Virus record (IMG/VR): IMGVR_UViG_3300032272_000005
Location: 23,333-87,332 of that record
From: a virus
Lineage: Duplodnaviria > Caudoviricetes
Strand: one strand, 5' to 3'
DNA length: 64,000 nucleotides
Part shown: positions 5,784 through 23,438 of the stretch, piece after piece
Layout of the letters: every line of letters starts with the position of its first letter
Position numbering within the stretch: position 1 is the first letter of the stretch
Made by a program: the position numbers and the translations under genes
Notes under the pieces: model-generated
The model's database searches: none
The model's input: only the letters and a program-made list of their open reading frames with translations
Told to the model about the DNA's origin: nothing

Positions 5784-5870
5784 TGTTTTTCTCCAAAGGT
5801 TGTTTCGTTGTGGTGTGAACCTTGTATAAACCCCTGTAAATAGTTTGTCAACCACTAATTTCAGGGCGGC

Positions 5871-6270: not shown

Positions 6271-6362
6271 TTACCTTACTCTCATCAATAAAGTGTCCGT
6301 CCCGATATGGCTGATACTAAACGCTTTTATTAGGCTTCTGTCAACTGTACGAAAGTATAAGA

Positions 6363-6395
6363 TACCCCCGCCACTGGTTTGTCAGGACGGGGGTA
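6363..6395 (-). terminator. Hairpin terminator after gene 6401-6784
   Basis: Perfect 8-bp inverted repeat TACCCCCG/CGGGGGTA right after the stop. Confidence 0.6.
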
Positions 6396-6400
6396 AGGGG

Positions 6401-6784
6401 TTATGCAGCTTCCAGTTGTAATTCGGGGAAGGCATATTCACCTGCCAACCAAGAGACGATGATCTCTTTCATTTCGTCAGGATCAGTAGCCCGTTGTTCA
6501 TCCGTGCCAAACTTCCGAACAGTGGAAGCGATTGAGCGGATGTTGGGTTCATTACCTTTTCTGCAAGATGCCTCAACAGATGCATATGGCTTGCGTCGTA
6601 GGAATGCGTGGGCCAAGTGTGCAGATCGTGCGGCTGGCCTTACAATATTGATCCTGTGGTCGTGTAGTGAATTTAGTGTGGACGTATCACCCGCCTTCTT
6701 TGCTTTGAATTCCTCTTTGCGGATATCGCGGCTTTCGTCGGCTAGATTTTTACGTTTGATTTTCAGTTCGACTGAGTAAGTCAT
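6401..6784 (-). CDS. Conserved-looking basic helical phage protein (ELKIKRKNLADESRDIR...LHDHR...LAHAFLR), function unknown
   Basis: AAAGGA RBS 7 nt upstream; RBS lies in an 8-bp inverted repeat. Confidence 0.75.
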   Translation of the reverse strand: MTYSVELKIKRKNLADESRDIRKEEFKAKKAGDTSTLNSLHDHRINIVRPAARSAHLAHAFLRRKPYASVEASCRKGNEPNIRSIASTVRKFGTDEQRATDPDEMKEIIVSWLAGEYAFPELQLEAA

Positions 6785-6836
6785 GTTATTTTCCTTTGAT
6801 AAATTTGAATAGTGATCTTGGGTTCATCAAAGGGAT

Positions 6837-6863
6837 TTAAGGCGGCTTCTAATTACGTTCCAT
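6837..6863 (-). promoter_or_regulatory. Leader mini-ORF with internal amber codon: ATG GAA CGT AAT TAG AAG CCG CCT TAA
   Basis: AAAGGG RBS 7 nt upstream, promoter TTGACA(6938-6933)-17-TAAGGT(6915-6910), anti-SD arm begins 3 nt after the TAA. Confidence 0.6.
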
Positions 6864-6912
6864 AACAGTGCCCTTTCGTTTAAGGTTATGCGTGTTTTGT
6901 TGTATGGCTACC

Positions 6913-7200
6913 TTATCCCCCGTGATTGGGTTTGTCAACCCGCCCAAAGATTTTTGTTTTGCCAGTATCTTCTGGGGGTATGACAGGTAATACTTTTGCA
7001 AGTGGGTCAGCATGTAACCCTTTCATAGCCAGTAAAGTCAGGCGTGCGGCTACACGGTTCTGGGGGTATCCTGCCCCTTCTTCCACAATGTCTACTAAAG
7101 CCGTAAACAATGCATCCCTACTGGTTATCAGATCGGCCCGTGTTGGGGCACTTGTATTCTCAGCTTCCGATAAGCGTTTAAGTTCTGTGTGATTAACCAT
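6913..7200 (-). CDS. Hypothetical protein
   Basis: AAAGGAG RBS immediately after tRNA. Confidence 0.65.
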   Translation of the reverse strand: MVNHTELKRLSEAENTSAPTRADLITSRDALFTALVDIVEEGAGYPQNRVAARLTLLAMKGLHADPLAKVLPVIPPEDTGKTKIFGRVDKPNHGG

Positions 7201-7227: not shown

Positions 7228-7302
7228 TGGAGGGGACAGCGGGACTTGAACCCGCGTCTTCGATTTTAGGGATCGCGCACTAACCAGTTATGCTATGCCC
7301 CC
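7228..7302 (-). tRNA. Atypical tRNA, anticodon CUA (amber suppressor-like), encoded CCA
   Basis: 7-bp acceptor stem, D arm with GG, T arm GCGGG-TTCAAGT-CCCGC, U73, CCA; anticodon arm CGAT-CCCTAAA-ATCG (4 bp, C33). Confidence 0.8.
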
Positions 7303-7715
7303 TTGGTTTTTAATTCTTCCATTGTTATAAATTCCATTGGACGGGAAATGTTCCGCAGCTTGTCAAAGTCGGTTTCTTCATTATCCATGAATTCTTGGGC
7401 AGCGGCCCTTCCTACTTTGGCCCACTTGAGCCGATTGTTCAGGATGGGTATCTGACGTCGCTTGCGGTGTATGTAATCATTCAAGGCGTCTTGTTTATTA
7501 TCCCGTGCGAATGCCTTGTTTACCCTACGGCTTACAAAACGACCTTTGCCATTGACCCTGCTATCATCCCAGTCGTCTAGGATCACCCCGCAGGGCGTGT
7601 GCTTAATCACGCGGTATTCCATAAAGGAAATGTGCATAGACGCGCCTGACCAGATTTCATATGCCCTGTACCAGTATTCTGGGATGTCAACATTTGGGTC
7701 AGTCAGATGCATCAT
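7293..7715 (-). CDS. Hypothetical protein
   Basis: 140 aa; ATGA overlap upstream; TAG stop lies inside the tRNA 5' end. Confidence 0.7.
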   Translation of the reverse strand: MMHLTDPNVDIPEYWYRAYEIWSGASMHISFMEYRVIKHTPCGVILDDWDDSRVNGKGRFVSRRVNKAFARDNKQDALNDYIHRKRRQIPILNNRLKWAKVGRAAAQEFMDNEETDFDKLRNISRPMEFITMEELKTKGA

Positions 7716-9121: not shown

Positions 9122-9337
9122 TTAATTTGATCTTGAGTTCACCAGTGTTTTACGGTGCTTGGCAGATCGGGGTTTAGGTTTGTTGTGCCCGATATGCCAA
9201 GCCTCACATTCCCTGCACTTGTACGCCCCGAATTTACCCCGCTGTTTGTTTCCCTTGCGAATGATCAGACCCTTCAAAGCACGGGTTGCACGGCCTTGGG
9301 TTTTATATGCATGTTTACCGTCACAACCTCTAGCCAT
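9122..9337 (-). CDS. Small Zn-finger protein (C..K..Y ... AYKCxxCxxWH)
   Basis: Recognisable phage Zn-finger pattern. Confidence 0.7.
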   Translation of the reverse strand: MARGCDGKHAYKTQGRATRALKGLIIRKGNKQRGKFGAYKCRECEAWHIGHNKPKPRSAKHRKTLVNSRSN

Positions 9338-9340
9338 GAT

Positions 9341-9613
9341 CTACCGTAAATCCTCGTTACGTGTTTCCAGAATGCTGTTTTGGAGTGCCCTCACCAGAGT
9401 GGTCAGGATGCGCCGTGAGCGGCCTTTACCAAAGAACGTCCACCCCATTGCCCGATCTAGGGCCAGAGCCGCCTCTTGAGCCTCTCCCAACGCCTGAACC
9501 CGTGATAGACGTGCGGCCTCATACACTAACCGTTGCAGGTTCCGCGCAACCCCCTCATCCAGCAATAGGATCATTTCGGGTGGCAGCTTGTATTGTTTTT
9601 TGTTCAGGCTCAT
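9341..9613 (-). CDS. Hypothetical protein
   Basis: ATGA overlap with upstream gene. Confidence 0.6.
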   Translation of the reverse strand: MSLNKKQYKLPPEMILLLDEGVARNLQRLVYEAARLSRVQALGEAQEAALALDRAMGWTFFGKGRSRRILTTLVRALQNSILETRNEDLR

Positions 9614-10969: not shown

Positions 10970-11061
10970 GTTGTTGATCCTCCAAGATCGGTTGGTGTAG
11001 CCCTACCTTAAACCCCCATAAATAGTTTGTCAACCACTAATTTGATCTTGAGTTCACTTAG

Positions 11062-23082: not shown

Positions 23083-23438
23083 CCGTCTGTCTCCAATTCA
23101 GGTGTGTAAGGGCCAAGGTCGGTAGCCCCACGGTTTTTAACACTGTGCCAAGCGCACATATCGCAAGCGACATAGGGGCCTTCTCTAAGTTTGGTTTTAT
23201 CAGAGAAATGAAACCACGCTATGATCTTGGTAGCTGGACTGCAACAATCAATACAGGTGCCGTGCGAGAAACTGGCTTTATCACAATCGGGGCAATGGGT
23301 TGGCCCTCCATTATCATCAAGGATCAGATAGGTATCTTGGCAGGTTGAACATTCACGGATCATATCAATCCTCCCATATACGCAGGTTGCAGCGTGAGCA
23401 TCGTGTCGAGTAGATACGCCCAAACCGTCCACACTCAT
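23079..23438 (-). CDS. Multi-Cys Zn-finger protein
   Basis: Four CxxC pairs. Confidence 0.6.
   Translation of the reverse strand: MSVDGLGVSTRHDAHAATCVYGRIDMIRECSTCQDTYLILDDNGGPTHCPDCDKASFSHGTCIDCCSPATKIIAWFHFSDKTKLREGPYVACDMCAWHSVKNRGATDLGPYTPELETDG

Follow-up and report, generated by a model that had tools for sequence, protein, structure and literature searches.

Upstream of a gene for a 127-amino-acid (aa) protein in a phage genome, we examined a very short open reading frame (ORF) that is interrupted by an in-frame amber codon, UAG, and that is itself preceded by a gene for a tRNA with the anticodon CUA. The locus is read on the minus strand of a 64,000-nucleotide (nt) stretch of DNA, here called the window, which is part of the virus record IMGVR_UViG_3300032272_000005 (positions 23,333 to 87,332). 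A preliminary description of the window had listed a promoter, a ribosome-binding site (RBS), the mini-ORF, two complementary 8-mers, the gene and a terminator, and all of these were found where it had placed them. It had further proposed that the gene would be on only when UAG is read through. The features of the locus, from upstream to downstream, are as follows.

7228-7302, minus strand: tRNA gene, anticodon CUA, amber suppressor (ARAGORN and Rfam RF00005)
6913-7200, minus strand: 95-aa ORF between the tRNA gene and the leader, no function assigned (ORF list)
6910-6938, minus strand: promoter-like site, TTGACA 6938-6933, 17-nt spacer, TAAGGT 6915-6910, putatively active (sequence)
6871-6876, minus strand: Shine-Dalgarno (SD) sequence of the leader, AAAGGG, 7 nt ahead of the leader ATG (sequence)
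6837-6863, minus strand: leader ORF, Met-Glu-Arg-Asn-UAG-Lys-Pro-Pro-UAA (sequence)
6793-6833, minus strand: hairpin that pairs with the SD sequence of the gene (anti-SD hairpin), 5' arm 6823-6833, 3' arm 6793-6803 (minimum free energy [MFE] and centroid folds)
6401-6784, minus strand: putatively regulated gene, 127 aa, stop codon TAA (ORF list)
6352-6395, minus strand: intrinsic-terminator-like stem (6363-6395) followed by a U-rich tract, putatively terminating (RNAfold, -23.2 kcal/mol)

The leader begins with ATG (6863-6861), continues with GAA CGT AAT to the in-frame TAG (6851-6849), and beyond it reads AAG, CCG CCT (6845-6840) and TAA (6839-6837), which leaves 52 nt between the leader stop and the main ATG. 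Three nucleotides after the TAA lies CCTTTGAT (6833-6826), the exact complement of ATCAAAGG (6800-6793). The preliminary description had based an anti-SD stem on these 8 nt; the helix in fact reaches 11 bp, pairing CCTTTGATGAA (6833-6823) with TTTATCAAAGG (6803-6793), and it is present in both the MFE and the centroid fold. Its 3' arm includes the GG of the SD sequence of the main gene (AAAGGAA). Folded alone, the hairpin has a free energy of -10.9 kcal/mol (z = -3.08), and 2 of 200 shuffled sequences fold equally well.

The promoter-like site overlaps the stop codon of the 95-aa ORF. That ORF is absent from most related loci and has no match in Pfam or PHROGs. A simple promoter/terminator scanner missed both the promoter and the terminator of the unit. 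A motif of the form TTGACAAAY..GGG..TAnnnT is present in 20 copies on the gene strand and in 0 on the opposite strand, and because the site at 6938 is one of these strand-specific copies, the promoter call there is independently supported. The copy at 11033 and the copy at 6938 have TAAGGTAG in common. We infer that the leader and the 127-aa gene are on one transcript, bounded by the promoter-like site and the terminator. A DNA search of the region against 50,697 phage records gave no match, and no covariance model of Rfam 15 matched the leader region (6790-6880) at E <= 1.

Conservation of the leader and of its hairpin

We collected the DNA of relatives from contig look-ups, from IMG/VR (80 loci) and from the JGI/ENA metagenomes (54 loci). 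A scan of viral contigs with the single protein had returned no matches, whereas an alignment-based scan did find relatives. After removal of duplicates, 87 distinct upstream regions remained, the window included. At 63 of the 87 loci, an SD sequence and a start codon are followed by 0 to 8 sense codons, an in-frame TAG, 1 to 6 sense codons and Pro-Pro. Immediately after Pro-Pro there is a stop codon in 52 of these 63 leaders (TAA in 40), and 11 are without one. TAG and Pro-Pro are separated by three codons in 42 leaders, Lys or Arg precedes Pro-Pro in 44, and the base following TAG is a purine in 62. The leaders of loci L081, L093 and L094 contain T-R-A-P-P. Since the third positions of the Pro codons differ between loci (CCA, CCT, CCG and CCC), Pro-Pro appears to be under coding and not base-pairing constraint. 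The codon that gates the leader is a release factor (RF)-specific stop, TAG or TGA, and is never TAA among the leaders resolved.

As a control, both strands of the 55 distinct regions from the IMG/VR set (window included) were scanned for the exact pattern start-TAG-x-Pro-Pro-stop, with the expected site defined as a final stop 30 to 75 nt ahead of the ATG of the family gene. Of its matches, 33 lay at the expected site and 6 in the other 648 kb, and shuffled sets gave 0 to 5 matches in total per set. By this sequence comparison, conservation of the leader design far exceeds chance.

In 41 of 49 loci, the sequence just after Pro-Pro can pair with the region of the main SD sequence in a contiguous helix of 7 bp or more (median 9). 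When arms of the same locus were paired, 73% gave a helix of at least 8 bp, compared with 21% when arms of different loci were paired, with medians of 9 and 6 bp, respectively. The arms themselves vary widely from locus to locus, yet pairing within a locus exceeds pairing between loci, and therefore the complementarity appears to be maintained locus by locus. Its position is also constrained. Counted from the first base of the gate stop, the 5' arm starts at a median of 21.5 nt across 64 loci (interquartile range [IQR] 18 to 24; window 18); counted from that of the second Pro codon, it starts at a median of 6 nt (IQR 4 to 8; window 9). In the window, the 3-nt spacer after TAA returns the distance from TAG to the arm to the usual range despite the short leader. 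The preliminary description had made the presence of leader and stem before homologues the test of its proposal, and most of the loci compared have them.

Very short ORFs, such as the lambda bar minigenes, are known to cause peptidyl-tRNA drop-off. The mini-ORF could therefore act on the tRNA or the ribosome, as a minigene that traps or tests the suppressor tRNA, for instance by such drop-off, and the hairpin would then be an ordinary structured 5' untranslated region. Coverage of the SD sequence by a hairpin in 41 of 49 loci, with arms that change together, argues against this explanation, as do the conserved distance from Pro-Pro to the arm and the lack of a Pth2 gene in this genome, and we give it hardly any probability.

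The suppressor tRNA and its match to the leader

The preliminary description had noted a CUA tRNA-like gene about 370 bp upstream of the leader. ARAGORN and Rfam agree on a tRNA at 7228-7302 (RF00005, 51.3 bits, E = 7.5e-10; gathering threshold, 29), and its 3' end is 365 nt ahead of the leader ATG. According to ARAGORN, the anticodon cta is at position 34, CCA is encoded and the discriminator is U73. The tRNA has the anticodon loop CCCUAAA (C33), and the 87-kb phage has no other tRNA gene. This unusual loop, C33 included, recurs in the tRNA of locus L092, where the protein is 61% identical to that of the window and the leader is a standard one. In most loci, the CUA tRNA gene lies directly upstream of the leader and ends 95 to 130 nt before the main ATG; in others, it lies 180 to 870 nt upstream.

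A minority of loci, including several of the closest protein relatives of the window, have a different leader, which consists of ATG, 1 or 2 codons, TAG-A or TGA-A, and then ..[K/R/S]-Pro-Pro in the +1 frame. Loop matches were counted where a tRNA could be found beside such a leader. Automatic sizing of the loops was noisy, with calls of 9 nt representing 7-nt loops with a non-Watson-Crick 31-39 pair, and the core sequences of the loops were used instead. Loops of 8 nt with the sequence N-Y-UUCA-A-N adjoin TGA-A leaders with Pro-Pro in +1 (L003, L012, L014, L021, L056, L138 and L144), and 8-nt loops with the sequence CU-UCUA-AY adjoin TAG-A leaders with Pro-Pro in +1 (L019, L133 and L137). Slippage into +1 at these leaders in the manner of prfB was ruled out, as the P-site codons CGT, ACG, CTG and ACT cannot re-pair in that frame. 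That leader frame and tRNA match in this way is, among the sequence evidence, the strongest indication that the adjoining tRNA decodes the leader.

The tRNAs of these ten loci, together with that of L095, which goes with L012, are candidate natural four-base decoders. Four further loci (L015, L023, L127 and L087) have 8-nt loops containing CCUA (or GCCCUAAC) beside TAG-A leaders in frame 0, where the fourth base is unable to pair with the anticodon; an enlarged loop is therefore not always tied to a +1 leader.

The tRNA data also bear on what the leader would sense. It could be the activity of the host release factor 1 (RF1), and not the phage tRNA, with the gene switched on once RF1 has been depleted, modified or inhibited in the infected cell. 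The state of any readthrough switch depends on how tRNA and RF1 are balanced, and a gate that is always RF-specific would suit such a sensor. However, most loci have a CUA tRNA gene in physical linkage with the leader, and Pro-Pro shifts to the +1 frame together with a four-base anticodon in an 8-nt loop, which RF levels alone cannot explain. We therefore consider an RF1 sensor very unlikely. Of the inputs named in the preliminary description, the suppressor tRNA is retained, in competition with RF1, whereas depletion of RF1 alone is not the input to which the genomes point.

The module is also carried by cultured phages, namely, Stenotrophomonas phages DLP_5, DLP_3 and Summit, DSS3_MAL1, and Synechococcus phage BUCT-ZZ01, which makes bench work feasible. 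The leader of DLP_5 reads M-K-UAG-V-Y-K-P-P-stop and is in the usual place, and that of DSS3_MAL1 reads M-K-S-UAG-I-R-P-P-P-stop. In DLP_5 (L145; MG189906.1, 49873-50342), a tRNA annotated as tRNA-Sup-CTA lies 8 nt downstream of the family gene and not upstream of it.

A candidate translational attenuator gated by amber suppression

The anatomy of the locus and its conservation, together with arms that are complementary locus by locus and leaders that match their tRNAs, lead us to infer that the unit is probably a translational attenuator of the stall-and-melt type, for which the phage's tRNA(CUA) would supply the input by suppressing the amber codon. In the broader sense that the gene is switched on when the phage tRNA reads through UAG, we regard the proposal as very likely. 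In this device, the 127-aa gene would have its own promoter and terminator, its SD sequence would be locked in the 11-bp hairpin, and ribosomes would start on the leader. In the off state, RF1 would win at UAG (6851-6849), the ribosome would leave, and the hairpin would stay closed with the SD sequence hidden. The arm starts 18 nt past the U of UAG, which makes about 21 nt when counted from the P-site codon's first base. A ribosome covers roughly 12 to 15 nt of mRNA downstream of the first P-site base, and because the start of the hairpin lies beyond this reach, termination by RF1 would leave the SD sequence hidden.

In the on state, charged CUA tRNA would decode UAG, and the ribosome would add Lys-Pro-Pro and then meet UAA. 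The E and P sites would then be occupied by Pro-Pro and the A site by UAA, and termination should be slow, as a Pro-Pro at the C terminus hinders termination and causes ribosome arrest whatever the context tested (PMC3834316). Once the second Pro codon has entered the P site, the arm is 9 nt downstream (it begins at +10), and the held ribosome would melt the C-G pairs that hold the GG of the SD sequence; the five leftover A-U and G-U pairs should not hold alone. The freed SD sequence would then allow a second ribosome to load on the main gene. Opening of an SD-sequestering stem by a stalled ribosome is known from SecM-secA (PMC10987492).

Comparison of the loci supports the proposal in the preliminary description that the gene is on only upon UAG readthrough: the leader architecture is found before homologues in about 80 distinct phage loci, and to this are added the locus-specific complementary arms, the upstream CUA tRNA, and Pro-Pro in +1 with UUCA or UCUA in 8-nt loops. 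The accompanying idea that a ribosome reaching Pro-Pro-UAA frees the RBS is likewise supported, with one refinement. By analogy with the published stalling data, Pro-Pro-stop is best read as a built-in termination-stall site, beyond a mere point reached by the ribosome. Same-strand promoters appear to drive both the tRNA gene and the leader-gene unit, and therefore the switch would impose a post-transcriptional condition, namely, that processed, charged tRNA competes with RF1.

In some relatives, the readthrough frame does not end ahead of the gene. It reaches an ATGA overlap with the main start in L033, L055 and L061 and continues in frame into the main ORF in L071 and L079. These run-on variants fit a readthrough event that turns the gene on. 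They also show direct coupling in some loci, and this lends support to another route, in which the ribosome that has read through, or its 30S subunit, ends at UAA, passes the hairpin and re-initiates at the main ATG, so that no stall at Pro-Pro would be needed. The 11 of 63 leaders with no stop right after Pro-Pro are in line with this route as well. On the other hand, the 52 nt between the leader stop and the main ATG in the window are long for coupling, and the 5' arm is in reach of a ribosome at Pro-Pro-stop. Furthermore, Pro-Pro is kept in nearly all loci while the third codon positions vary, which suggests that the dipeptide matters. Re-initiation in place of a stall is thus unlikely in our view.

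Several observations weigh against an attenuator of the stall-and-melt type. The leader of the window is the shortest of all and the sole one of the 63 with a single codon between TAG and Pro-Pro, and on a readthrough peptide of 8 residues, ribosomes may stall only weakly or lose the peptidyl-tRNA by drop-off. The hairpin is only moderate at -10.9 kcal/mol, which makes some basal translation likely. The tRNA of the window may decode poorly, with C33 and an anticodon stem of only 4 bp, and it does not adjoin the leader but lies 365 nt upstream, behind another ORF. Among the relatives, a few family members have no leader (L018, L036 and L099), and L104 has an 8-nt loop of the UUCA type but Pro-Pro in frame 0. 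Finally, the reach of the ribosome on the mRNA used above is a value for ribosome footprints in general.

Three of these peculiarities, the single codon between TAG and Pro-Pro, C33 in the tRNA, and the ORF and promoter that separate the tRNA from the leader, would also be expected of an element that has decayed or become non-functional in this phage, with the gene expressed constitutively from its own promoter. However, with the 3-nt spacer that follows TAA, TAG and the arm are again 18 nt apart, within the IQR of 18 to 24, and the 11-bp helix is among the longer ones. The C33 loop recurs in L092 beside a standard leader, and the tRNA is intact and the only one of the phage. Decay is thus extremely improbable.

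The proposed attenuator resembles several known systems. SecM-secA, ApdA/ApdP (RAPP), the XP-stop upstream ORFs (uORFs) before sec genes and the ermC/cat leaders all have a short uORF followed by an SD-hiding stem-loop that is opened by a held ribosome (PMC10987492). The analogy with leader-peptide attenuation made in the preliminary description is borne out in two respects: the window has a short uORF with its own SD sequence (AAAGGG, 7 nt ahead of the ATG at 6863), probably on the transcript of the regulated gene, and it has an SD-sequestering stem of 11 bp with a 5' arm that starts within reach of the arrest site, 9 nt downstream of the second Pro codon's first base. As to arrest at the end of the leader, the motif Pro-Pro-stop is present, and it would have the stalling effect reported elsewhere (PMC3834316). 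In the arrest-peptide attenuators, the stall responds to secretion force or to an antibiotic, and the peptide is far longer than the 8 residues of the window; in the phage leader, an in-frame stop and a dedicated suppressor tRNA would decide whether the ribosome arrives at the stall site. The leader is not of the RAPP type (ApdA, ApdP and the RQH family), which has R-A-P-P or a close variant in a longer peptide with a localisation signal. The window has N-x-K-P-P-stop in 8 residues with no signal sequence, and a few of its relatives have T-R-A-P-P.

With TnaC-tnaA and YbeL-PP, the leader would share the slow release of peptidyl-prolyl-tRNA at a stop codon and a paused ribosome that is regulatory (PMC3834316). 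TnaC, however, senses tryptophan and acts on Rho-dependent transcription termination, whereas the phage leader implies no ligand, and its output would be the unmasking of an SD sequence. The analogy with autoregulation of prfB (RF2) drawn in the preliminary description is a loose one. It holds for an early in-frame RF-specific stop that senses competition in decoding, and the +1 relatives need a +1 shift at the stop as well. In prfB, however, the stop is inside the regulated gene, slippage occurs on CUU U, and the product is the factor that is sensed, whereas the phage leader has its stop in a separate leader, no slippery codon and a linked tRNA, and the product is unrelated to release factors. 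The stop of the phage leader is in frame 0, away from any prfB-like CUU-U site with its SD-like stimulator 3 nt upstream, and the 127-aa protein has no Pfam or PDB similarity to release factors.

The closest parallel in principle is engineered. In amber switches built with a UAG in a tna-type leader and an orthogonal tRNA(CUA), translation of the leader past UAG is needed for downstream expression (PMC6412442). Those switches are synthetic and act on transcription via masking of a rut site, whereas the phage switch would be natural and translational, with a stall at Pro-Pro-stop. In full-text literature searches, no natural leader under the control of a suppressor tRNA came up, in agreement with the preliminary description, whose author knew of no described phage system of this form. 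Judged by its sequence, the device would thus work like an arrest-peptide translational attenuator, and natural gating by a suppressor tRNA would be the new part. If this is true, it is a natural gene switch induced by a stop-codon-decoding tRNA, a principle which synthetic biologists have built independently, and the +1 relatives would be natural, self-reporting cases of four-base decoding.

The protein family and the phage genome

The 127-aa protein belongs to a family of 3,380 clusters (50% identity) at E <= 0.001. Its AlphaFold2 model, from an alignment of 130 sequences, is all-helical and confident, with a predicted local distance difference test score (pLDDT) of 95.3 and a predicted template modelling score (pTM) of 0.86. 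In the predicted fold, residues 5-62 form a long helical hairpin, after which comes a small helical domain, and L14, E17, H43, R53, E71 and W112 are invariant. Neither this protein nor 10 diverse relatives had a match in Pfam or PHROGs, and a profile search against PDB sequences gave 0 matches at E <= 10. With Foldseek against PDB, the best E value was 0.7 (CHMP3). VIA-align returned only generic helical hairpins (PspA, Snf7 and designed proteins) at Z <= 7.2, below the meaningful level for helical folds, and BFVD returned only uncharacterised members of the same family. The structure prediction called for in the preliminary description, with ribosome or release-factor interaction in mind, gave a confident model whose matches were no better than a generic helical hairpin. 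We checked these loci for a conserved downstream partner gene and found none.

The family gene ends in TAG in 1 of 56 cases, and that one is in a UGA-A module. We also considered whether the protein could be an RF1 antagonist. Since UAG-gated and UGA-A-gated modules encode the same protein family, an activity specific for RF1 is unlikely. A HEPN-like Rx4-6H motif was considered and dropped, as the His is not invariant and no HEPN fold was among the matches. The only long relative found is P0157 (333 aa, from a 1.3-kb JGI contig), in which the family domain is joined to Pfam XPG_I, a FEN-1-like nuclease; this single case may be a gene-calling artefact. Our guess is that the role of the 127-aa protein is tied to the special tRNA or to the ribosome.

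The virus record from which the window comes is 87,332 bp long, has direct terminal repeats and is estimated to be complete. Its large terminase is about 43% identical to those of Vibrio siphophages of roughly 80 kb. The genome uses the standard code. TAG terminates 16 of 103 long ORFs, most of these TAG stops are backed by a further stop 0 to 15 codons on, and coding coverage is no higher when TAG is read as sense (75,790 against 75,988 nt). The genome therefore does not have the characteristics of a stop-codon-recoded phage (code 15, TAG = Gln).

Recoded phages (code 15 or code 4) share with the window phage a phage-encoded tRNA(CUA). Borges et al. (bioRxiv 10.1101/2021.08.26.457843) proposed that suppression times late gene expression in such phages and noted suppressor tRNAs in standard-code relatives; no leader is described in their recoding survey. 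The window phage differs in that it is not recoded, and the identifiable target of its tRNA is one leader and not in-frame stops of late genes. The leader offers a concrete and testable target for the suppressor tRNAs of standard-code phages, which have hitherto been explained mainly as stepping stones to recoding.

Joining these lines, we tentatively put forward a wider reading, to which we give somewhat less than an even chance. The orphan suppressor tRNA of standard-code phages might mainly be the trans-acting key for this switch, forming with its codon an orthogonal tRNA-codon pair that host tRNAs cannot read and that licenses or times one protein. The device might have been rebuilt with four-base decoding, in which UUCA or UCUA in 8-nt loops would read UGAA or UAGA, and the protein might be a component of the translation apparatus required only after the special tRNA has come into operation. 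The family, with about 3,400 clusters, a confident fold and no known relative, would be marked as probably linked to translation.

Some further observations concern the surroundings of the module and the window. In full, the promoter-like motif is TTGACAAAY-N(5-9)-NGGG-N(1-4)-TAnnnT, and its minus-strand copies are spread over positions 660-63282 of the window, with examples at 5851, 6111, 6938, 9107, 11033, 13728, 16717 and 24325. All 20 copies are in the window's part of the genome, with 0 in the first 23 kb. TTGACA alone was found 62 times on the minus strand and 17 times on the plus strand. In L001/L012 and L004/L019, the module lies within a head-gene cluster and not in a tRNA array, flanked by Mu-F-like or portal-sized genes and, at its other end, by the scaffold and major capsid genes.

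Two other ORFs of the window have TAG stops in notable positions. The 90-aa ORF at 9341-9613 (minus strand) ends in TAG-A, one codon from the next ORF (9122-9337), which is in the same frame; amber readthrough would fuse both into a protein of about 163 aa, and the shared frame has a one-in-three chance and may mean nothing. The 140-aa ORF at 7293-7715 (minus strand; PHROG 13631, function not assigned) ends in a TAG that lies within the first 10 nt of the tRNA(CUA) gene (7293-7302).

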